64,000 nt of DNA, taken from the NCBI GenBank assembly GCA_965117045.1, contig OZ220749.1, positions 1,288,143 to 1,352,142 on the forward strand, read 5' to 3'. Positions 32,937-58,880 of this stretch are shown here, one piece after another. This DNA comes from a bacterium. GTDB taxonomy: Bacteria > JAAXHH01. The notes under the pieces are model-generated. The model was not told the origin of the DNA. It made no database searches and saw only the letters and a program-made list of their open reading frames with translations. Numbering within the stretch: the first letter of the stretch is position 1; the number at the start of each line of letters is the position of its first letter. The position numbers and the translations under genes are program-made.

Positions 32937-34523
32937 ATGCCTGCATCACCTGCATCACCTGCGTCATCAGCATCCAGCGATTCGTCCCGGATCCAGGCCC
33001 TGCTAGCCCACCGGGGCGGGCTCGCGACCGAGTTGCGGCCGGATCCGACCCTGTTCGAACGGATCGGGGGCCGATCCATTGTCGCGGACATCATCGACGG
33101 CCTGTATGACCGGATCGAAAAGGACGCCGAACTACGGCCCATGTTCACCCGTACGCTGGCGCCCGAACGCATGAAGCAGAAGGCGTTCATGGAGGAGTGG
33201 ATGGGCGGCGAACCGGGCTACTCGCGGCACCACGCCTACGGCGGCCTGAAAAACCGGCACGGTCACATTCACATCACCCGGGCATCCGCCGACCGGTGGC
33301 TGTCGCACATGACCGCTTCGCTGCGGGATCACGTCGGGGACGAAACGCTCGTGGCCGAAGTGCTATTCGTGCTCCGGCCCCTTGCCCACGGCCTCGTCAA
33401 CGAGCGGAAATCCGCCCGTCACGGGTGGGAGATGAGGTGTCACCGGGAAAAGCGATGGAGAACTCCGGCGAAAATGGCGGCAAGGGGCCAGGTGGAAGCC
33501 CTTGAGCGCCATCTGGACGAAGATCCAGCGGTGCTGGACGATCCCCGTCACGGCGCGATCATCCTCGCAGAAGCGGCGTTGCGGGGTCATACGCAGGCAG
33601 CGGCCCTGCTGCTCGACCGGGGGGTGGACGTGAACATACCGTCGGCCCATTCGAGCGACATCATGATGACCGCCCACTGTGCCGCACGAAGCAAGATGAA
33701 GGACGAAACGGCTGCGTTCCTGCTGGAGCGGGGTGCCGTGTATGATGTCTTCAGCGCCTGTTTCCTGGGTGACCTGGACCGGACAGGTGAACTGCTGGAT
33801 GCAGCGCCCGGAATGGTCAACGCCCACGACCCCGCCTGCGACCTGCTGCCCGTTACGCCATTGTATCACGCCGTGCATGGCGGGCACGAAGAGGTCGCGA
33901 GGATGCTGTTCGCCCGGGGCGCTAAAGTTGGCGTAAACAGCACGGCCCTGGTCCGTTACGCCGCCGGTCGAAGGCGGACCGATCTGCTTCGGCTGGTGCT
34001 GGAGCACGGCGCGGACGCCACCCGGATCGGCTGCGGCAGATGGGTACTCGACGAGAAAGAATCCGCCCTGCTTATTGCCCGCGGCGCCGACGTCAACTAT
34101 CCTGACGGAAAATGGATCTGGACGGCCTGTACGGGGAACAACAGCCAGCGGGACGATCCCCCGTACGTGCAGGCACTGCTGGACAAGGGGGCCCGGATCG
34201 ACACGGTACTGCGCGGCGCCAGCGCGCTGCACTTCGCCGCCAAGGCCGGATTCACCGGGGTAATGGAGGTCCTGCTGGACAACGGCGCGCCGGTCGACGC
34301 GCGGAGCGAAAAGGGTGAGACCCCCCTGTTTTACGCGCTGAAGGCGGGTCCCAGGGCGGACATGGTGGAATCGGTGGCACTGCTGTTGGCCGACGGAGCG
34401 GACCCGACCCTGGAAGACAGGCTGGGCAAGTCGCCCCTGCGTATCGCCCGCCGGATGAAACGTCCCGACAAGGAACGCATCGTCTCAATGTTCGAAGCCG
34501 CTAGTCCTTCCGTGCCGGCGTAA
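32937..34523 (+). CDS. Group II truncated hemoglobin domain fused to ankyrin repeats
   Basis: TLFERIGG..LYDRI..LRPMF..WMGG..LKNRH..ADRWL globin motifs, then TPLYHAV, SALHFAA, ETPLFYA ankyrin repeats. Confidence 0.85.
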   Translation: MPASPASPASSASSDSSRIQALLAHRGGLATELRPDPTLFERIGGRSIVADIIDGLYDRIEKDAELRPMFTRTLAPERMKQKAFMEEWMGGEPGYSRHHAYGGLKNRHGHIHITRASADRWLSHMTASLRDHVGDETLVAEVLFVLRPLAHGLVNERKSARHGWEMRCHREKRWRTPAKMAARGQVEALERHLDEDPAVLDDPRHGAIILAEAALRGHTQAAALLLDRGVDVNIPSAHSSDIMMTAHCAARSKMKDETAAFLLERGAVYDVFSACFLGDLDRTGELLDAAPGMVNAHDPACDLLPVTPLYHAVHGGHEEVARMLFARGAKVGVNSTALVRYAAGRRRTDLLRLVLEHGADATRIGCGRWVLDEKESALLIARGADVNYPDGKWIWTACTGNNSQRDDPPYVQALLDKGARIDTVLRGASALHFAAKAGFTGVMEVLLDNGAPVDARSEKGETPLFYALKAGPRADMVESVALLLADGADPTLEDRLGKSPLRIARRMKRPDKERIVSMFEAASPSVPA

Positions 34524-49909: not shown

Positions 49910-50791
49910 ATGGAATCCGGATCTGACGAAGCCTTCCTGTCGACGTTTGCACGCGGGGATCTGGAAGCCGCGTGCGCCTTTATCGAGAGGCGGCCCCGGC
50001 TCGCCGGCTACGACGGGATCGCGGCCCACCCTCTCCTACGGGAATGCGTCCGCCGGAACTGCGGCCACTGCTATAAATCGACCCATCGGGCGATCGCGGA
50101 CCTGCTGATTCCCGGCCGTGTGCGCGCCTTCAGGGATGCCGTGATGGCGGATCGGATCGAAGCGGTCCGGTCCAGGCTGACGGACGATCCCGATCTCGTA
50201 CATGCCGAATTCACCGGAGGCCGGGGGATCGCCCGTGCGGTACATCACTGGCGGTCCGTCCCCGTCGGTAGACTGCTGCTGGACAACGGGGCCGACGTGA
50301 ACGCCCTGACTACCGTGGGGTGCGCCGGGGATACCCCGCTTATGATGCAACTGCGATTCGGCACCCTGGAAGGCGCGCGATTCCTGCTGGAAAGCGGCGC
50401 GGAACCGAATCGGGGCGGGCTCAAGCATACGCCGAGCGCAACGATGGCGGAGGGACTCAAGCTGCTGGTCGGCCATGGATGGGACATCAACGAGCAGGTG
50501 GGTGGTCGCACCCTCCTGCACCATGACGCCAATCACGGCCACGGCAAGCGGGTCCGTCTGCTCCTGGATCTCGGGGCCGATCCCAACCTCCAGGACGGCG
50601 AAGGCCGTACCGCGCTGCACCTCGTCTGCGCGAGAGGGACGGGATCTGAGACGATCCGCGCTCTGATCGAAGCCGGCGCCGACCCGGACGCGCAGGACCA
50701 CGGGGGCAGCACGCCCATGGACTGTGCCGCTTCCGCGAAGGGCCGGACGGCGTTCCACGCGCTCGTTGAACTCGGCGCCCACACCGGTTGA
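49910..50791 (+). CDS. Ankyrin-repeat protein
   Basis: GADVNA..DTPL, RTLLHH, RTALHL, GADPD. Confidence 0.9.
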   Translation: MESGSDEAFLSTFARGDLEAACAFIERRPRLAGYDGIAAHPLLRECVRRNCGHCYKSTHRAIADLLIPGRVRAFRDAVMADRIEAVRSRLTDDPDLVHAEFTGGRGIARAVHHWRSVPVGRLLLDNGADVNALTTVGCAGDTPLMMQLRFGTLEGARFLLESGAEPNRGGLKHTPSATMAEGLKLLVGHGWDINEQVGGRTLLHHDANHGHGKRVRLLLDLGADPNLQDGEGRTALHLVCARGTGSETIRALIEAGADPDAQDHGGSTPMDCAASAKGRTAFHALVELGAHTG

Positions 50792-50843
50792 AAACGAGGA
50801 TCGGCCAGCTGGCGGCGATCGGGCTACGGATCGGAGCATCGCT

Positions 50844-52532
50844 GTGGAAATTAAAGGAAAGTACCCCGACCGCGCCGCGCGCATGGCGTTTCCCGGGAAG
50901 TTCCGGGGACCCGTGCACGTGGACGCCTGCCGGACCGGGTTCATGATCTGTCCGGGCCTAGGGCCCGAATACGGCCGGCCGTACTACGACGACCGCTGGG
51001 GCGACGAGACCGACTGGATCGACGGCGAAGCCGCCTGGTCCCTTTTCAAAGCCGGCGCTGCCGGTGATCTGCCAGCCATTTCGGCGTTACTCGACGAAGA
51101 TCCGCGCCTGGTGAACGCCCTGCACTGGTACGCCCAACCGATACACATGGCCGCGCGCCACGGCCACGCCGATGCCGTGCAACTGCTGCTCGACCAGGGT
51201 GCCGATCCCGGACTCAACATATTCAATTCGACCTGGGCGAGCCTCCTCGAAGGCGCCCGGGAACGCGGTTTCGACGATGTGGCGGAAGTCCTCGAGCACG
51301 CGATGAACGCCCGGTTCGGCTACGATCCCGCGTTCGGAGAGATCGCCGATCTCATAAAGACAGGCGGCTCCGATCGCGTTGCATTCGAACGCGTTGCATC
51401 GGTGTTGCGCGACCGGCCCGAATTAGCTGTCCGAGCGGACGAAGACGGCAACAACGGGCTTCACCTGGGCGTACTGAACGGCCGGATAGACCTGATCGAG
51501 CTGTTTCTGGATCGCGGCCTGCCCGTCGATGCCCGGCGGGCGGACGGCAAGACCCCGCTGACCCTTTCCTTCGATGTCGGTTTCGGACTCGAACCGCCCG
51601 ATCCGAAACTCGGCCTCACGGAGTTCCTGTTAAAGAACGGGGCCCATTACGCCATCACCGCGGCCTGCCACCTGGGCGACTTCGACCGGGTCAAGTCGAT
51701 CCTCGAGGCGCATCCCGCCGAAAGGCATCGCGATACCGCCCTGAGGTCTCCCCTTTCCTATGCGGTGCGCGCAGGACACGAAGGCATCGTGCGCCTGCTG
51801 CTCGAAGCAGGCACCGACGGACACGCGGTAGACGAAGCGCTCTTCGTGGCCGTGTGGCACAAGCACGAGCACCTGGTTCGCCTCTTGCTCGAATGCGGCG
51901 CCAATCCCAACGTGGAACTGGATTCCTGCGGTTGCGCCGCGGGCACGGACGATCAGGAAATCCGAAACCTGCTCGTACGTCACGGAGCGGTGTACCCTCC
52001 GTCCTGGAGCCTGGACCACGAAGCGCTTCGGAACCTGGTGGACGACAAGTCGAAGCGGGTCCGGGATCCTTACGTGGCCGCCGAAGTGATCAGTTCGGAA
52101 GACGACCAGTTGATCGATGGCCTGCTGGACGACGATCCCGATGCACCCGGACGCCTGGAAGACCTTCAATACCTGCCGGGCTGGGGCGACAACGCCGCGA
52201 TTACCCGCAAGCTCGTCGCGGCGGGCCTGGATCCGAACCGCCGCACCTTCGAGGGCCAAACCTACCTTCACGTCTGTGCTCGGCACGGCTGGGCATCCAC
52301 CGCCCGATCCCTGATCGAGCAGGGCGCGTCGGTAAACGTGCTGGATGAAAAGGAAGGCCGCACACCCCTGGCCGTAGCGGTCGAGCACGGTCAGACGGGC
52401 ATGGTCCGCCTGCTAATGGAACATGGCGCCGACACCGGCCTGGCCGACTGGCCCTGGACCCGCCCGCTGGCGATTGCCTCGGAGAATGAAGAAGATGGAA
52501 TTTCTGAATTGATTCGGGAGTGGGAGAAATGA
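50844..52532 (+). CDS. Ankyrin-repeat protein; start uncertain (50844 GTG or 50943 ATG)
   Basis: QPIHMAARHGH, KTPL, SPLSYAV, TYLH, RTPLAVAV. Confidence 0.9.
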   Translation: MEIKGKYPDRAARMAFPGKFRGPVHVDACRTGFMICPGLGPEYGRPYYDDRWGDETDWIDGEAAWSLFKAGAAGDLPAISALLDEDPRLVNALHWYAQPIHMAARHGHADAVQLLLDQGADPGLNIFNSTWASLLEGARERGFDDVAEVLEHAMNARFGYDPAFGEIADLIKTGGSDRVAFERVASVLRDRPELAVRADEDGNNGLHLGVLNGRIDLIELFLDRGLPVDARRADGKTPLTLSFDVGFGLEPPDPKLGLTEFLLKNGAHYAITAACHLGDFDRVKSILEAHPAERHRDTALRSPLSYAVRAGHEGIVRLLLEAGTDGHAVDEALFVAVWHKHEHLVRLLLECGANPNVELDSCGCAAGTDDQEIRNLLVRHGAVYPPSWSLDHEALRNLVDDKSKRVRDPYVAAEVISSEDDQLIDGLLDDDPDAPGRLEDLQYLPGWGDNAAITRKLVAAGLDPNRRTFEGQTYLHVCARHGWASTARSLIEQGASVNVLDEKEGRTPLAVAVEHGQTGMVRLLMEHGADTGLADWPWTRPLAIASENEEDGISELIREWEK

Positions 52533-52556
52533 AGATGAGGATGCAACGCGACCGGG

Positions 52557-52790
52557 TCATCTATCCGTGGAAAGAAACGCGTTCCAGTCGGCCCGGACTG
52601 TCTCTTCCGCGACGTCGGGATAGCAGAAGTCATAACGCTCCGCCAGCGCACGCCCAACGCAGGCGACCTCATCCCGATACCGTTCGATCAGCGCCTTCAG
52701 TTCGCCGCGGGTTCGCACTGGTGCTCCGAGCACTTCCAACGCGTTTCTTCCGGTTTCGTCGATCGACCGAATCTGGGGCGTCAGCGTATG
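52557..52790 (-). pseudogene. Possible C-terminal remnant of a nucleotidyltransferase-like gene
   Basis: ELKALIERYRDEVACVGRALAERYDFCYPDVAEETV resembles aminoglycoside/lincosamide adenylyltransferase C-termini (from memory); no plausible start. Confidence 0.4.
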
Positions 52791-52837
52791 AATAGGAAGC
52801 CGGAATGAAAGCACGATCGTGTGGATGGTGAGAAAAC

Positions 52838-54061
52838 ATGGCCGATGCCGCCATAATACAACTTCCCGATCACCCCGACCTGGAATACCTGAAAGCAGAA
52901 GCGGAAAGCCTCGTCGAGGACGGCTCCTGCGCTTCGCTGCCCGATGCGCGGCAGCGAGTAGCCGCACGGTACGGGTTTCCTGATTGGCCAAAACTGGTGG
53001 CCTACGTCGGGTCGATCGGCGTCATGGGGGAGCTCGAACGGGCGATCCAGGCGGACGAAACAGATGGGGTGAGGCGGTTGCTGCGGGACGATCCCGGCCT
53101 GATACACCGGGAAGGGCACTGGATCAAGCGGCGCCGGCACAACGGTTACCGGCCCTTGGCCTACGCTGCCTTTTTCGGTAAAACCGGGGTCATGAAGACC
53201 CTGATCGATGCCGGAGCGGAGGTACACGAAGGAGAAGAAAAGGCCTTGCGGGCGGCCGCCTGCTTCGATCGGAATCTCCCCGCCGTCGACTTGCTGCTTG
53301 ACCGCGGCGCGGACCCCGATGTGTCGACGACCTCGCCCTCCGGTGTTCCGTACCGGGTGATCGACTATCCCTGCATGACGTTGGCTCCGGTGATGCTGGA
53401 CCGCCTGGCTTCGGCGGGCGGTACGCTCCTGCCGGAAAACGCCGGGATGATCCTGGCGACGAATGAACGGCGACCCCGGGACAAGGCTGCTTGTCTGCGC
53501 GTCCTGAAGCAGAAGGGGATCACGTTGCCGGACACACCGCCCATGGCGTTGCATCTTATGGACAGGGACCGCCTCGCGCGGAACCTGGAAGGCAATCCTC
53601 AGTTGCTCGGGAGGTCGTTCAGCGCGGAGGAAATCTTTCCATCGGACTACGGGATCAGGCATCCCGCGCCGTACGCCTGCGCGACCCCCCTGACCGGCGG
53701 CGTAACGCTGTTGCACATGGCGGTCGAGTTCTGCGACGTGGAAATGGCCGGGTGGCTGCTTGAACAAGGCGCCGACGTGAATGCACCTGCCGGCACCGAC
53801 CACGAGGGGTACGGGGGCTGGACGCCGCTATTCCATGCCATGGCTTCTCTGCATGTGCCCCGCAACTTCACGGACATGGCCGACCTGCTCCTCGAACACG
53901 GCGCCGACCCGGCGGTACGCGCATCCCTTCGCAAACCGACGCCGGAGGGCGGGGAATACACGTGGAGGGATGTGACGGCGGCCGAATACGCCCGGAGATT
54001 CGCCTATCCCGACCTCGTCAACCAGGACGCGCTGCAACGCGTCACTGCGGCGGGCGGCTGA
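52838..54061 (+). CDS. Ankyrin-repeat protein with an N-terminal helical 'ARxYGFxxW' domain
   Basis: LPDHPDLEYLKAEA..ARQRVAARYGFPDWPKL, then ankyrin repeats. Confidence 0.9.
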   Translation: MADAAIIQLPDHPDLEYLKAEAESLVEDGSCASLPDARQRVAARYGFPDWPKLVAYVGSIGVMGELERAIQADETDGVRRLLRDDPGLIHREGHWIKRRRHNGYRPLAYAAFFGKTGVMKTLIDAGAEVHEGEEKALRAAACFDRNLPAVDLLLDRGADPDVSTTSPSGVPYRVIDYPCMTLAPVMLDRLASAGGTLLPENAGMILATNERRPRDKAACLRVLKQKGITLPDTPPMALHLMDRDRLARNLEGNPQLLGRSFSAEEIFPSDYGIRHPAPYACATPLTGGVTLLHMAVEFCDVEMAGWLLEQGADVNAPAGTDHEGYGGWTPLFHAMASLHVPRNFTDMADLLLEHGADPAVRASLRKPTPEGGEYTWRDVTAAEYARRFAYPDLVNQDALQRVTAAGG

Positions 54062-54111
54062 ACCGAACGCCCGGGCCGAGGGCGGCTGAACCGAACCCGA
54101 GAACATCCAGG

Positions 54112-55941
54112 ATGCCGCACAGTATGACGCATTTGGATCCACTCCCTACCAGTCCTTGGCCGTACCCGGTCGCCCTGAACGATATCGCAGGTGAAGCCCG
54201 CGAGCTGTTCGAGGCACACCGGGCCGGTGCTAAAACGATGCCGGGCAAGGCGGCACCGGACCATCCCGCACCGGATCCGTCCACCTTCACCCTGCAAGGC
54301 GCCCGCGACGTCGTGGCCCGAAGCTACGGATTCCCGGACTGGAGCCGCGTCGAACGATACTTCCGCACGGTAGAAGACCACACACGCAATCCTAACGTGG
54401 AACCCACGCCTTCGAAGCCGTGTGACTGCGCCGGATACGCCGACGATTTCCTTCGTCTCGCCTGTCTGACGCAGGGTGCCCAGGATCACCCGTCGAGGTG
54501 GGCAAGGGCCCGGAGCATGCTGGATGCCCATCCGGAACTTTCCCGGATGAGTATTTACACCGCCGCCGCGGCCGGTGATGTTTCCGCCGTGTCCGCATTT
54601 CTGAAAGCAAACCCCGAACGCGCGAAGACTCCGGGCGGTCCCCATGACTGGGAACCGCTGCTTTACGCGGCGTTTTCCCGTCTGGACCCCGGGACATCGG
54701 ATTCGGCGGCCATCGAAGTAGTCCGGCAGCTGCTTGCCCATGACGCCAACCCGAACGCCGGTTATCTCTGGGCCGGCTTCCCGTGCCCTTACACCGTCCT
54801 GACCGGTGTTTTCGGCGAGGGGGAAAACGGTCCGGTACGCAGCCCCCCGCATCCAGCCTGCTACGACCTGGCGGAGATCCTGATCGAGGCCGGCGCCGAC
54901 CCGAACGACGCGCAGACACTCTACAACCGGATGTTCAGCCGTGACGACGAACACCTGAGGTTCCTGTTCGCCCGCGGGCTGGGCAAGGATGGGAACCGGC
55001 CCTGGCACGGGTTGCTGGGCGAGCAAGCACGGGGTTGGTTGAGCAGTCCGGCTGACATGCTGGCCTATCAGCTTCAGTGGGCCGCCCGGTGGAACTATCC
55101 GGAACGGGTCCGCCTGCTGGCCGAGAACGGGGCAGACGTAAACCGGCCGTCCAACCGGCCTGATGCGCGCTCCCCTTACGGCGAAGCCGTCTATCACGGG
55201 AATGGGGACATCGCCGAGTACCTGGCTGCCCGTGGCGCGAGTACATTCCCGCTGGACGACCTGGACCGGTTCGCGTGCATCCTTGGAGACCGCGACCGTG
55301 CCCGCTCGCTGCTCACCCGCGACTCATTACTGATTGAAAAACTAGGAGAACGCGGCAACGTGCTCATGGAGAACGCCGTCGGATCGGACAACCGGGACGC
55401 GGTCCGGTTGATGGCCGAACTGGGTTTCGACGTGAACGCCTGCGGCATGCACGAAGCGGCCCGCTACGGCCACCTGGACATGATCAAGCTGCTGGTCGAA
55501 CTGGGTGCCGATCCGTCTCGACTGGACGCAGGACACGGAATCGACGCGCTCGGTCATGCCAGCCACTACCAGCAGGACCACGTGATCGACTATCTGGCAC
55601 CGTTTGCCGGGATACACCGGGCGGTAAAATCGGATCTGCTGGTCCGCGTGCGGGATCTGCTGGAAAACGACCCCGCCTGCGTCCGCGAACGGGACAACGC
55701 GGGGAACACGCCGCTGCACTGTCTCGACGTGGATAACCGGATGGAGGATACTGAGGAGATACTCCGGCTGCTCGTAACGCACGGAGCCGACGTCAATGCC
55801 AGAAACCATGAGGGCCTGACACCGCTCGACAGGCTGGAGCGTCTTGCCGGTTTGAGCCGAAGGGACGATCTGGCCGAACAGCTGCGCGGGTATGGGGCCG
55901 TGGAATCAGACGTCTCAGACGGGTCGAAGGGCCGCCCCTGA
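54112..55941 (+). CDS. Ankyrin-repeat protein with an N-terminal 'ARxYGFxxW' domain
   Basis: ARDVVARSYGFPDWSRV, GGPHDWEPLLYA, GADPND, NTPLH. Confidence 0.9.
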   Translation: MPHSMTHLDPLPTSPWPYPVALNDIAGEARELFEAHRAGAKTMPGKAAPDHPAPDPSTFTLQGARDVVARSYGFPDWSRVERYFRTVEDHTRNPNVEPTPSKPCDCAGYADDFLRLACLTQGAQDHPSRWARARSMLDAHPELSRMSIYTAAAAGDVSAVSAFLKANPERAKTPGGPHDWEPLLYAAFSRLDPGTSDSAAIEVVRQLLAHDANPNAGYLWAGFPCPYTVLTGVFGEGENGPVRSPPHPACYDLAEILIEAGADPNDAQTLYNRMFSRDDEHLRFLFARGLGKDGNRPWHGLLGEQARGWLSSPADMLAYQLQWAARWNYPERVRLLAENGADVNRPSNRPDARSPYGEAVYHGNGDIAEYLAARGASTFPLDDLDRFACILGDRDRARSLLTRDSLLIEKLGERGNVLMENAVGSDNRDAVRLMAELGFDVNACGMHEAARYGHLDMIKLLVELGADPSRLDAGHGIDALGHASHYQQDHVIDYLAPFAGIHRAVKSDLLVRVRDLLENDPACVRERDNAGNTPLHCLDVDNRMEDTEEILRLLVTHGADVNARNHEGLTPLDRLERLAGLSRRDDLAEQLRGYGAVESDVSDGSKGRP

Positions 55942-56007
55942 GTCCTGAATCGGCACGCCCGGTGTCCTGAATCGGTCCACCCCGTGTTCTGAATCGGCAC
56001 GCCCCGT
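55941..56007. repeat. ~22-nt imperfect tandem repeat x3 after the stop codon
   Basis: gtcctgaatcggcacgcccg / gtgtcctgaatcggtccacccc / gtgttctgaatcggcacgcccc. Confidence 0.8.
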
Positions 56008-56058
56008 GGGGGATTGATCGACGCGCTGTCTTCGTGCATCCTCAACCGTTTCTTGGAA

Positions 56059-56385
56059 TCACTTTCCCCATTTGGAAACAATCAGGCCCGCCAGCAACCC
56101 GACGACGATCCCCGGGGGCACGATCTCGACGTAGGATCCCGTGGAAACCGCCGCGAGCAGGGAAAGGACCGCTCCCACCGCGCCGCCGGCCAGCACGTTC
56201 TTGCCGACCCCCGCGATTCTGCTCGCGATCACGCCGACCAGCAGACCCGTTACCAGGCCCTTCGCCGTTCCCCACACGATGATCTCGGTCATCATGCCCT
56301 GGGCCTCGGGAATCAGGAATGCGGACAGCCCATCCAGCAAGCCGAGCACCGCACCGGCGATCAATCCCAGTGGTACGCGCTTCAT
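56059..56385 (-). CDS. Small hydrophobic membrane protein
   Basis: 108 aa, four Gly-rich TMs, ATGA overlap with the upstream gene. Confidence 0.75.
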   Translation of the reverse strand: MKRVPLGLIAGAVLGLLDGLSAFLIPEAQGMMTEIIVWGTAKGLVTGLLVGVIASRIAGVGKNVLAGGAVGAVLSLLAAVSTGSYVEIVPPGIVVGLLAGLIVSKWGK

Positions 56386-56807
56386 GATGGCTGCTCCGGT
56401 GTGTTCAGGTGACAGTTGAACATCCAGTTTGTGCCGAATTTGTCCGTGATCGTTCCGAAACGTGCGCCCCAGAAGGTATCCTGCAGCGGCATGGTCACCT
56501 CGCCGCCGGCGGACATGGCGTTGAACGCCTGTTCCAGTTCATCCACGCTCGCGAAGTCGATCGACAACGAGATGTTGGTGTCCGAAGGGACCGTTTCAAT
56601 ATGGTCGGAACCCATGATCACGTTATCGCCGAACCGGATGGACATGTGCATGGCCTGTCCCTCCATGTGGTCCGGGATTTCCATGCCGATGTCCTGGTCT
56701 TTGCTGTAGTGACTCAAGTTCACCACTGAACCGCCGAGACAGTCCCGGTAAAACTCGAGTGCCTCTTCGCATTGGCCGTTGAATGCCAGATAGGGTACCA
56801 GCTTCAC
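56382..56807 (-). CDS. PhnB-like VOC protein
   Basis: VKLVPYLAFNGQCEEALEFY..MPLQDTFWGARFG..DKFG.NW; AAGGAG SD before GTG. Confidence 0.92.
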   Translation of the reverse strand: MKLVPYLAFNGQCEEALEFYRDCLGGSVVNLSHYSKDQDIGMEIPDHMEGQAMHMSIRFGDNVIMGSDHIETVPSDTNISLSIDFASVDELEQAFNAMSAGGEVTMPLQDTFWGARFGTITDKFGTNWMFNCHLNTPEQPS

Positions 56808-56956
56808 GATAGGTCTCCTTACGGTAAGCCACCGCAGCGGGTGACGGGTTCGCCGGGCCACCCACTGTACGGATGGCGGATTCACCGACGTTGTATAACT
56901 GTCGTTATAAAGATACAACAGGCGACGGGTTGAAATGGTAAAAAAGCGACAAAGGG

Positions 56957-57180
56957 CTAAAGTTCCGCGAATTCCACGTTGTTTTTTGCGAAGTACGCCT
57001 TCGGGGTAAACCCGGTAAAGGCACAGAATTCCCGGATGAAATGGGCCTGGTCGAAATACCCGCATTCGTGGGCCAGTCGGGTCAGCTTACTGTCCCGGTA
57101 CCCGTCCAGGTGATGGCAGATATTCCGGAACCGGCTGATACGGGAGAAGGTCTTCGGCGTCAAGCCGGACGCTTTCTCTT
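56957..57180 (-). pseudogene. AraC-family regulator remnant (C-terminal HTH only)
   Basis: GLTPKTFSRISRF..LAHECGYFDQAHFIREF..FTGFTP; upstream sequence does not look AraC-like. Confidence 0.78.
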
Positions 57181-57207
57181 GACGCACCCGCGAAGCGCCT
57201 GTACCAT
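57179..57207 (+). promoter_or_regulatory. Sigma70-type promoter for the leader RNA and ankyrin gene
   Basis: TTGACG-17 nt-TACCAT. Confidence 0.7.
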
Positions 57208-57213
57208 AACATG

Positions 57214-57357
57214 ACCGGCGTGTGCAGGGCGCCGCCTGTCCGCGGAAAGAACACAAGTTCACCTGCATCGGTACCCTTCTGTTGTGGCAGCCTTCTTCCT
57301 GCCCGTCCGGCGGACATACGGGTGCTCTGGCGGTCTCGTAATCGCCTGAAGGAGGTT
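57214..57357 (+). ncRNA. Putative structured cis-regulatory 5' leader RNA with two multi-stem junctions, the second pairing with the SD
   Basis: Hand-identified helices GUGCAGG/CCUGCAU, CCGC/GCGG, GAAC/GUUC; AGCCUUCUUC/GAAGGAGGUU, GCCCGU/ACGGGU, GGCGGU/AUCGCC. Confidence 0.55.
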
Positions 57358-57359
57358 CC

Positions 57360-58880
57360 ATGCCGTCCCTGCCATCCCCTACCGACTTACGCCATCTCAG
57401 GTTGCAGGCGAAAACGCTGCTGAAGTCCGCGCGCAGCGGCGAAGCAGACGCCGTCGACAGAATCCGGTCGGCCGCCGGCGCGCGGCGTGACCGCCTCGTG
57501 CTGTCGGACGCTTATCACGCCATCGCCCGGGAACATGGGTTCAAATCCTGGCCCCACCTGAAGATCCACCTCGAAATCGCCGCCAGGGACCAGGACGAGA
57601 AACGGGCAATGTTCCTGTCATCGGCCTGGGTTTGGGGCGATCGGAAACGCGCCGAGGCCGTGCTCGAATCGGCGCCGGAACTCACCCGGGGGGATATCCA
57701 CGCCGCCTGCGCCGCCGGGGACGTAGATGCCGTCACGAACATCCTAGCGGCCGATCCCGCCGCGGCCGTGACGAAGGGCGGCCCGAAGAACTGGACCCCG
57801 ATCCTCCACGCAACGTGGTCCTGTTTTCTTTCCAAGCGTGCCGACGCCATGGTCCGTATCCTGGAACTGCTCCTGCGGAACGGCGCCGACCCGGACAGCT
57901 ACTGGGTGAACGATGACGACTGGAAGGAGTCGGCCATCTACGGATGCGTGGAGAACAACTGCGTGCCGGCGGCCCGGGTGCTGGTGGACGCGGGCGCCAA
58001 CCCCAACGACAACGAATCCCTGTACCACGCCTGCGAGAAGTTCAACCTGGAACTGCTGGATACGGTCGCGGTGAACGGGCTGGACGCGGAAGCCGTTTCC
58101 TACTGCATCAAGCATGTCATGGACATGAACTGGACCGAGGGCATCCGGTGGTTTCTCGACCAGGGCGCCGATCCCAACGCCCTCCACCCCGCCGACGGGG
58201 AGACGTCCCTGCATTGGGCCGTAAAGCGAAACAACTCGGCCATAGTGATCGGCGCGCTCCTGGAGGCCGGTGCGGACCCCAACGCCGCCACCTCGACCGG
58301 GAAGAGCACGGCGCTCGGGATCGTCGGCCGTACGCCCCTGGATTTCGCCCTGCGGCTGGGCCGCGGAGAGATCGCTGCGCTCCTCAGGAAGCATGGCGCC
58401 GTGCCGTCCCCCATGTCCGAATACGACCGCTTCGTAGTCGCGTGCGCCAATACGGACCTCGAAGTCGTGGAACAGTTGAAAGACCGTCATCTGGCCGACT
58501 TGACGGACGACGACCGGTCCCTGATCAGCCACGTGGCCCAGGTAGACAACTGGGCCGCGGTCCGTCTCATGGCGGACCTGGGCTGGCCCGTGGACGCCCG
58601 GGGCTGGATGGAGGCCACGCCCCTCTACTGGGCCCTGTGCAAGGCAAATCCCGAAATGGTCGAATTCCTCCTCCGGCGGGGTGTCTCCACCGAGCCCATA
58701 GGCGGGTATTTCCAGGACCCGATCCACGCCGTGATGCACTGCCAGTGGAACGGGGAAAAAGGCGGATACCCCGTCGCGCTCGGCTTGCTGCTCGACCACG
58801 GTCTCGCCATACCGGAAGGACGCTATCCCAGCGGCAACGCCGCCATGGACGCGGTGCTGTCGCGGTACATCGAAGACTGA
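57360..58880 (+). CDS. Ankyrin-repeat protein with an N-terminal 'ARxYGFxxW'-type domain
   Basis: LRHLRLQAKTLLK..AYHAIAREHGFKSWPHL, GGPKNWTPILHA, ETSLHWAV. Confidence 0.92.
   Translation: MPSLPSPTDLRHLRLQAKTLLKSARSGEADAVDRIRSAAGARRDRLVLSDAYHAIAREHGFKSWPHLKIHLEIAARDQDEKRAMFLSSAWVWGDRKRAEAVLESAPELTRGDIHAACAAGDVDAVTNILAADPAAAVTKGGPKNWTPILHATWSCFLSKRADAMVRILELLLRNGADPDSYWVNDDDWKESAIYGCVENNCVPAARVLVDAGANPNDNESLYHACEKFNLELLDTVAVNGLDAEAVSYCIKHVMDMNWTEGIRWFLDQGADPNALHPADGETSLHWAVKRNNSAIVIGALLEAGADPNAATSTGKSTALGIVGRTPLDFALRLGRGEIAALLRKHGAVPSPMSEYDRFVVACANTDLEVVEQLKDRHLADLTDDDRSLISHVAQVDNWAAVRLMADLGWPVDARGWMEATPLYWALCKANPEMVEFLLRRGVSTEPIGGYFQDPIHAVMHCQWNGEKGGYPVALGLLLDHGLAIPEGRYPSGNAAMDAVLSRYIED

Follow-up and report, generated by a model that had tools for sequence, protein, structure and literature searches.

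The window analysed here is a stretch of 64,000 nucleotides (nt) from a bacterial genome (GTDB lineage JAAXHH01; GenBank assembly GCA_965117045.1, contig OZ220749.1, positions 1,288,143 to 1,352,142 of the forward strand), and coordinates below refer to positions within it. Its plus strand carries the gene of an ankyrin-repeat protein of 506 amino acids (aa) (57360-58880; ankyrin repeats by Pfam), the first ~77 residues of which (57360..57590) form a helical N-terminal domain, hereafter the N-domain, as delimited by protein alignments, a profile and an AlphaFold2 model. A sigma-70-like promoter (57179..57207, plus strand) precedes the gene and, upstream on the minus strand, the C-terminal ~70 aa of an AraC-family regulator remain (56957..57178), a remnant that is not part of the RNA element treated here. 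That element, 57214-57364, had been called a promoter-delimited cis-regulatory leader in an earlier note made from the sequence alone, a call that the present comparison supports and that was right in substance. With a probability of about 90%, we take 57214-57364 to be a real structured, cis-acting RNA that forms the 5' leader of the mRNA of the ankyrin gene. It belongs to a structured cis-regulatory RNA family, with members of ~130-155 nt and two pseudoknots, that is absent from Rfam 15.

Minimum-free-energy (MFE) folding of 57214-57362 gave -55.7 kcal/mol and returned, in two domains, all helices proposed in the earlier note: ACCG/CGGU, GUGCAGG/CCUGCAU, CCGC/GCGG, GAAC/GUUC, GCCCGU/ACGGGU, GGCGGU/AUCGCC, and the 10-bp pairing of 57289-57298 with the Shine-Dalgarno (SD) region 57348-57357. 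For a comparative view of this fold, two public collections were scanned with exact patterns, which added divergent members, and the covariance models R1 and R2 found more. Twelve of the 53 loci from the genome-contig scan were real, all in metagenome-assembled genomes (MAGs) titled Candidatus Latescibacterota, Gemmatimonadetes/Gemmatimonadota or 'bacterium', while the other 41 lacked domain 1; the metagenome scan gave five real loci out of six, the sixth (L109), which the model misses, being due to chance. RNAalifold returned the proposed structure from 18 sequences with 8 of 46 pairs compensated. Among 19 close sequences, 97.4% of cells paired and 9 of 41 pairs had changed on both sides, compared with 2.0 ± 1.1 in shuffles (0/500 as high) and with pairing in 34-45% of cells when the structure is slid by 1-3 columns. 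In the final alignment, which holds 94 matches (93 distinct), 90.5% of cells paired versus 41-47% for the slid controls, 40 of 43 pairs had changed on both sides, and the covariation score of 0.454 stood against 0.176 ± 0.005 in shuffles (0/500 as high). The conservation and covariation that had been anticipated upstream of homologs were thus observed and, as far as aligned sequences can tell, every helix but CCGC/GCGG is backed by compensatory change.

Domain 1 (57214..57272, plus strand, as are all elements of the leader) is closed by P1a (57214-57217/57269-57272) and P1b (57222-57228/57262-57268). Across the 94 sequences P1a (ACCG/CGGU) is the weakest helix, with 73.1% of cells paired and 4/4 pairs changed on both sides, while P1b reaches 87.4% with 7/7. 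The P2 hairpin GAAC-acaa-GUUC (57249..57260) is paired in 100% of cells with 4/4 pairs changed, as seen in the variants GGGA/UCCC, GGAC/GUCC and GAGC/GCUC. Further downstream and nested within the helix formed by the SD and its complement, the P3 hairpin GCCCGU/ACGGGU (57301..57323) is paired in 95.5% of cells, with 5/6 pairs changed on both sides, and bears GCGGAC (57310-57315) in its loop. The P4 hairpin GGCGGU(C)/(A)AUCGCC (57329..57346) is optional in the family: it covaries within the type-1 class of leaders, where the closing pair is GC, AU, UA or GU and genome G027 has GUGUGUUC/GAACACAC, and it is missing or replaced in most other classes.

The predicted CCGC/GCGG hairpin (57232-57235/57242-57245) was the one helix of the earlier note to find no support beyond the MFE fold. 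It was rejected because its third position varies between G, A, U and C while the partner C is invariant, and because its 3' strand is used in a loop-loop pairing. This pairing starts from a helix of only two pairs, CC 57235-57236 with GG 57244-57245 (57235..57245), the inner pair column of which reads CG 79, AU 5, UA 4 and GC 1 times in 93 sequences. The helix closes a loop, GUCCGC (57238-57243, the K-loop), that is complementary to GCGGAC in the P3 loop, so that the two form a kissing-loop pseudoknot. Pairing here amounts to 98.9% of cells with 5/6 pairs changed on both sides, and the interaction was contained in neither search model. Five compensated variants were found (GUCCGU:ACGGAC, UUCCGC:GCGGAA, GCCUGC:GCAGGC, GUUUGC:GCGAAC and ACCCGC:GCGGGG), the first of which is the kissing pair of the entire type-2 class; the outermost kissing pair is lost in several type-3 sequences. 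A second crossing interaction, also outside the covariance model, is the helix P1c (GGCGU 57217-57221/GCGCC 57229-57233; 57217..57233), which flanks the 5' strand of P1b. At least four contiguous P1c pairs occur in 49 of 50 members, as opposed to a mean of 9.8 of 50 (maximum 18) when the upstream letters are shuffled, and the mean length of 4.74 pairs exceeds the 4.11 ± 0.12 obtained with partners swapped among sequences. Its variants include GCAU/AUGC, GUGC/GCAC, AUGCGC/GCGCAU and GGCUG/CAGCC. P1b and P1c cross, and domain 1 is therefore an H-type pseudoknot. The fold initially proposed, which was free of pseudoknots, thus proved incomplete, and comparison added both the H-type pseudoknot and the kissing loop.

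The second domain buries the signals for translation initiation. On its 5' side (57286..57298), the first strand of the start-codon helix P0 (GGCA, 57286-57289) and the anti-SD GCCUUCUUC (57290-57298) pair with 57361-57364 and 57348-57356, respectively; on its 3' side (57348..57364), the SD GAAGGAGG (57348-57355), the ATG (57360-57362) and the second P0 strand UGCC (57361-57364) are all paired in the consensus fold. The SD/anti-SD helix is paired in 91.2% of cells with 9/9 pairs changed on both sides, and P0 in 87.7% with 4/4. The pairing survives extensive sequence change: anti-SD and SD read CCUUCUUC/GAAGGAGG in type 1, ACUUCCUU/AAGGAGGU in type 2, CCCUCUUUC/GAGAGAGGG in G044, and CUUUC/GAAAG in type 3 and in many members from the phylum of a Gemmatimonadales-titled MAG. 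Divergent members even rebuild the start-codon helix from unrelated sequence (AUCACA/UGUGAU, GGCGUC/GACGUC and CGACG/CGUCG, read by eye). The burial of the SD by an upstream anti-SD, as foreseen in the earlier note, is hence borne out by a helix maintained through compensatory changes. A scan for terminator-like sites within the leader found none. As SD and anti-SD covary in a leader without such a site, control of translation initiation is the natural reading, and the leader probably acts at this step through its SD helix.

The promoter was recovered where it had been predicted, with a -35 element TTGACG (57179-57184), a 17-nt spacer and a -10 element TACCAT (57202-57207). With 9/12 consensus matches it is the sole sigma-70-like site that a consensus scan detects in 56300-58000, a range for which shuffles predict ~0.5 ± 0.7 sites. 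In the 17 genus genomes that carry the leader, TTGACG is invariant, the spacer of 17-18 nt is variable in sequence and the -10 element keeps TAnnnT; a few variable bases follow before near-invariant sequence sets in from ACCGG on. Family-wide, a sigma-70-like site of at least 8/12 lies just upstream of 33 of 49 leaders compared with 3 of 42 control windows, its -10 element ending mostly between -3 and +7 nt of the model start. The elements thus stand 16-18 nt apart and, in most members, at a conserved position relative to the transcript, as expected of a sigma-70-type promoter. The predicted transcription start, 57214 (about 57213-57215, plus strand), falls 7 nt past the -10 element, and both the conservation and the model match begin there, in agreement with the earlier proposal of a start where pairing begins. 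In three RNA libraries, taken from two studies, the contigs over the leader start at 57214, 57224 and 57230 and stop at 57373-57392, and none extends upstream; by contrast, a DNA contig spans 56909-57868, through the start region. The ends of the RNA contigs fit the predicted start and give a weak hint in its favour, as assembled contigs cannot prove a 5' end. At low depth, two metatranscriptome assemblies represent the leader region by one short piece each (153-170 nt) that holds the leader and first codons only, and a third RNA run (X17) yielded a 172-nt leader contig plus separate contigs deeper in the gene. Four sequencing runs underlie this evidence; small word shares seen in most runs were left aside, and no meaning was given to stretches lacking RNA coverage.

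At the genus level, the leader block (from ~57155 to the gene) is present in 17 of 28 genomes, including the genome of the window, at 81-90% identity. In all 16 relatives it is better conserved than its gene is at four-fold degenerate sites (means 0.865 vs 0.791), and most clearly so in the most distant ones (0.82-0.87 vs 0.65-0.70). The leader is single-copy in its 3.83-Mb genome, where a DNA search finds only the element itself; weaker matches of model R1 in this genome (22.8, 17.1 and 15.4 bits) were treated as chance, the third lying inside long open reading frames (ORFs). Within the small phylum to which the window belongs, whose public records are titled Latescibacterota or Gemmatimonadetes, 26 of 33 genomes have an R2 match (E <= 0.05). 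Beyond it, R2 matches (E <= 0.001) occur in 39 of 151 sampled genomes from the phylum of the Gemmatimonadales-titled genome (64 matches) and in 11 of 151 from that of a Vicinamibacterales-titled genome, both of which are lower bounds given the stricter filters and the sampling of larger groups. Hosts comprise sponge-associated and other environmental metagenomes, with up to four leader copies per genome. In the phylum of the window, three paralogous leader classes precede three ankyrin paralogs, next to single cases. Only type 1 is kept in the window's genome; type 2 stands before the ortholog of the 52838 gene in relatives (L132-L143), ~5.2 kb upstream of the type-1 leader, and type 3 occurs in some relatives ~21-25 kb away on the opposite strand. 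The model detected no leader before the two other N-domain genes of the window (52838 and ~54175; 52560-52840 for type 2).

No Rfam 15 family matches the element in the window or the member loci searched. Rfam 15 (4227 models) gave only three matches in 56500-58000, with E-values of 1.3-9.2, scores 30-107 bits under gathering and positions all outside 57179-57362, and no match at E <= 1 across 13 loci with family members. The Rfam search proposed in the earlier note hence returned nothing at the element, and its statement that the RNA is unnamed in Rfam was correct both for the window and for the member loci. Full-text literature searches found no description of the motif or of the N-domain, which supplements and uncovered papers could still hold. 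SD-sequestering structured leaders are well known as a kind; new are this family, its double-pseudoknot architecture and its near one-to-one tie to a portable N-terminal protein domain.

This tie is the most consistent feature of the genomic context. Every leader class precedes a protein starting with a ~75-residue domain of the pattern LPxxPxLxxLKxQAKxLL...LxDAQxVIAREYGFxSWxxLK. In the phylum of the Gemmatimonadales MAG, an N-domain match lies at most 231 nt downstream on the same strand for 57 of 64 leaders, and the seven leaders without one include one cut by a contig end and four that are themselves weak or partial matches. Seen from the protein, a leader precedes 60 of 70 N-domain matches; counted by genome, 35 of the 151 have both, 4 the leader only, 5 the N-domain only and 107 neither. 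For the phylum of the Vicinamibacterales MAG, nine of 11 leaders have an N-domain downstream (compared by eye), so that, pooled over the two samples, 66 of 75 leaders stand directly before an N-domain gene. In an examination of 56 downstream frames, 54 contained the domain, and the two misses were put down to frame picking, which for L108 is backed by the correct frame in the printed sequence and for L191 is assumed. Five unrelated genomes with chance pattern hits behaved likewise: four had neither domain nor leader, and the fifth had two of each, paired. The C-terminal part of the protein varies, from ankyrin repeats in the window gene (Pfam) to a Ser/Thr-kinase-like part in G044 (glycine-loop motif, by eye) and a protein with no evident ankyrin repeats at L108 (by eye). 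Singling out the helical N-terminal domain, as the earlier note did, was thus appropriate, since the leader tracks that domain and not the ankyrin repeats. The leader stands in cis to the gene whose protein it tracks, and does so in three phyla; this is an association only, and binding is putative. Two members deserve separate mention. At L153 (G044:C134), the N-domain kinase-like protein has no in-frame ATG, GTG or TTG after the SD, and the first plausible start is an ATA 7 nt past GGAGGG. At L144 (G026:C5:113109-113233, minus strand), a 38-bit leader match is followed by a short frame without N-domain, which may be a decayed gene.

Absence of the two components also coincides. In nine genus genomes (G016, G008, G001, G019, G004, G013, G014, G006 and G003) the ankyrin ortholog matches only from residue ~50-79 on, and N-domain and type-1 leader are both absent. 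In the examined loci of these N-domain-less orthologs, a glyoxalase-family gene lies ~300 bp upstream. The window's genome holds only three N-domain copies, all within the ankyrin island of the window (52838, ~54175 and 57360).

The N-domain itself is widespread: searched against 1.84 billion proteins, its profile retrieved 9513 cluster representatives (E <= 0.001), in which the domain is nearly always N-terminal and frequently present twice. A Pfam scan of 58 longer hits assigned ankyrin repeats to 28 proteins, Clp_N to nine (with an additional ClpX zinc finger in two), LRR to five, FliM to two and FliG_N to two, while the remaining 14 had no family at E <= 1e-5; the counts total 60, as two proteins carry two families (Ank+Clp_N, Ank+LRR). 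Proteins P0004, P0049, P0038, P0078 and others combine the N-domain with ClpX-type zinc fingers and Clp_N arrays or with FliM-/FliG_N-like domains, fusions that hint at an adaptor or targeting role. The domain is basic, with a mean net charge of +3.5 and positive values in 47 of 54 cases, in a protein whose remainder is acidic (-2.4 per 75 aa). AlphaFold2 predicts four helices at a predicted local distance difference test score (pLDDT) of 75.7. Pfam and NCBIfam contain no named family for it and gave only a sub-threshold likeness to the N-terminal helices of Glyoxalase_8 (E 0.03-0.14), and matches in the ESM Atlas were hypothetical proteins with scores <= 0.87; none of this informs on the identity of the domain.

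Taken together, these data suggest a mechanism in which the compact fold, with SD and start codon paired, would represent the translation-OFF state. The opening frequency of the SD helix would be set by an effector bound to the core (GCGCC-N-CC-N-GUCCGCGGAAAG plus the P3 loop), which is invariant and partly unpaired. This effector may be the encoded protein's own N-domain, or that of its paralogs, giving negative feedback as in ribosomal-protein leaders. We favour such autoregulation because the RNA follows the N-domain through different fusions and paralogs and because the charge of the domain fits, and we put it forward as a working proposal with a chance somewhat short of even. More tentatively still, leader and N-domain might constitute a portable RNA-protein feedback cassette, with the N-domain as a putative new RNA-binding domain that reads the kissing-loop core. 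No second cellular RNA that the leader might mimic was found in the window's genome: the model has no second strong match there, and the core 12-mer (<=1 mismatch) is not enriched, with 45 occurrences versus 61 for the reversed control.

Several observations weigh against this reading, some against the RNA structure and others against the N-domain as effector. The folding energy is unexceptional: 200 dinucleotide shuffles average -54.45 ± 3.95 kcal/mol (z -0.32), 69 of them fold as well, and the opposite strand is about as stable (-53.7, z -0.82). Stability no better than shuffled controls, which the earlier note had listed as evidence against its own proposal, is formally what was obtained. 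The energy test has little power in a sequence of 62% G+C and is not used as support here, and since it does no better than shuffles, the claim of a family rests on the comparison. There, the shuffle tests overstate significance, since the sequences are kin and their alignments were fitted to the model; the slid controls, the kissing loop and P1c are free of this bias. On the protein side, N-domain genes without a detectable leader make up two of three in the window's genome, 10 of 70 in the phylum of the Gemmatimonadales MAG and seven of 16 in that of the Vicinamibacterales MAG. Leader and domain are encoded by adjacent DNA and may be inherited and lost together, which could account for much of their association without physical contact; the association is real but in part simple co-inheritance among kin that are not independent. 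Ankyrin, LRR, Clp_N and FliM/FliG_N as fusion partners point to a role in protein interaction or targeting. The N-domain model resembles no known RNA-binding fold, although the fold searches were uninformative: Foldseek against the PDB returned no hit at E <= 0.001, and the best match of the VIA wide search (Z 4.2), to the L27 domain, which mediates protein-protein contacts, is not meaningful.

A small-molecule or ion riboswitch, with the pseudoknotted core as aptamer, the SD helix as expression platform and the N-domain genes as regulon, is a possible alternative that we take seriously while considering it doubtful. The anatomy fits it as well as it fits autoregulation: invariant unpaired nucleotides sit in covarying stems, the conserved structure with its two pseudoknots has the covariation support expected of an aptamer, and the conserved, covarying helix that sequesters the SD is what an expression platform would require. 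Several copies with the same core occur per genome (up to four), the family spans three phyla, and some riboswitch classes are themselves tied to a single gene family, as is the pnuC motif (NAD+-II; PMC7749635). The downstream genes, however, give no clue to a ligand. Of 75 leaders, 66 precede one family, which is defined by a non-enzymatic N-domain joined to repeat or adaptor domains. Genes for transport or biosynthesis, which would point to a metabolite or ion, were not seen behind any leader. A leader that stays with the N-domain whichever C-terminal domain follows is more directly in keeping with a protein-RNA pair.

Autoregulation by the N-domain protein also has to be set against a ligand-independent translational damper or an RNA thermometer acting without a specific effector, which would be compatible with the pairing of SD and start codon in both MFE and consensus folds and with an effector that is not demonstrated. 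We consider this unlikely, as such a device would not call for ~30 invariant unpaired nucleotides, nor for a kissing loop and an H-type pseudoknot, all of them maintained in three phyla; moreover, no Rfam thermometer family matches, and the hosts range over sponge-associated and other environmental metagenomes.

Conservation could also have arisen at the level of DNA, through regulatory sites (operator or promoter) of the divergent AraC gene, or at that of protein, through an upstream ORF or an ankyrin protein extended at its N-terminus. An AraC-family gene does start ~237 bp upstream of the ankyrin ATG, divergently and as a full 268-292-aa gene, in 10 of the 16 leader-bearing genus relatives. 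The block stays with the ankyrin gene whatever lies upstream, be it AraC (10 relatives), a glyoxalase-family gene (G007, G012) or a 263-aa plus-strand ORF (G002; unscanned), and it is equally conserved where AraC is absent from the locus (G002, G007, G012) or reduced to the remnant (G000, the window's genome) as well as next to unrelated neighbours in other phyla. In G000, 647 bp were deleted between two copies of an 11-bp microhomology (junction 57157-57167), and the metatranscriptome contig of a relative departs from the window at 57161. The remnant covers only positions 18-79 of the HTH_18 profile (E 1.3e-9), and neither the domain with two helix-turn-helix motifs nor the N-terminal sensor of an intact regulator was found. 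Because the deletion left only this remnant, the rest of the 134-aa minus-strand ORF (56957-57361) that runs over the leader is no gene. On the plus strand, a 70-aa ORF (57211-57423) spans the leader in the window, and an in-frame upstream extension of the ankyrin gene is open in six relatives; against coding stand the ATG at 57211, which is ATC, ATA, ACT or CAT in relatives, one-base insertions in the leaders of G043 and G005, a TAA (57339-57341) that closes the extension in G000, and the compensatory nature of the changes within RNA helices. On its opposite strand, the window has a single model match (33278-33296; 9.6 bits, E 0.59), weak and unrelated to the leader. From these changes, the leader is not protein-coding, and an origin of its conservation in DNA sites or coding appears very improbable. 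Repression of the CsrA/RsmA type through three conserved GGA motifs, in the P3 loop (GCGGAC), in domain 1 (GCGGAAAG) and in the SD, is similarly far-fetched, as PF02599 has no match in the window's genome (96.6% complete), the same search hit three control genomes, and the loop GGA is paired in the covarying kissing interaction.

The wider neighbourhood is an ankyrin-rich island (49910-58880) with ankyrin-like ORFs at 49910-50791, 50724-52532, 52838-54061, ~54100-55941 and 57360-58880, three of which Pfam confirmed. The AraC remnant is adjoined by a glyoxalase/PhnB-like gene (56382-56800) and a 108-aa hydrophobic ORF (56059-56385), both on the minus strand and conserved genus-wide beside the ankyrin gene.

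If the leader is what we propose, a large and complex RNA class would be added that is absent from Rfam, and it would show how some of the bacterial ankyrin proteins, often called "eukaryote-like", are regulated while giving a first clue to the function of a widespread N-terminal domain that has no name. Should the cassette exist, it would have been joined to ankyrin, LRR, Clp_N/ClpX zinc-finger, FliM/FliG-like and kinase-like parts, and proteins built on it would arrive with their own dosage control in three or more phyla and in protein clusters numbering thousands. Either outcome for the effector would be useful, namely an orphan riboswitch with an unusual regulon or a new RNA-binding domain with a modular autoregulatory cassette.

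Several kinds of known leader invite comparison. SAM-II, preQ1 and guanidine-III are translational riboswitches whose pseudoknotted aptamers sequester the SD, ROSE and fourU are RNA thermometers that mask the SD by base pairing in the 5' leader, and the L1, S15, L20 and ThrRS leaders are autoregulatory leaders of genes for ribosomal or RNA-binding proteins. With the riboswitches the present leader shares its promoter-proximal position, the invariant nucleotides in stems and pseudoknots and the SD helix beside the core; unlike them, it matches no Rfam 15 family, and its downstream genes are neither metabolic nor transport genes but one N-domain family. Like ROSE and fourU it pairs the SD in the 5' leader, whereas it is much larger, pseudoknotted, rich in invariant unpaired nucleotides and without an Rfam match. 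The pnuC motif, later NAD+-II, was an orphan motif tied to one gene family whose function pointed to the ligand (PMC7749635). The leader resembles it as a structured motif found almost exclusively with one downstream gene family and differs in that the N-domain genes have no known function to suggest a ligand. With the L1, S15, L20 and ThrRS leaders it has in common a structured, often pseudoknotted architecture, entrapment of the SD, a position directly before a gene family tracked almost one-to-one and a basic tracked part; unlike its counterparts there, the N-domain is not a known RNA binder, and it is portable, fused to many unrelated C-terminal domains.

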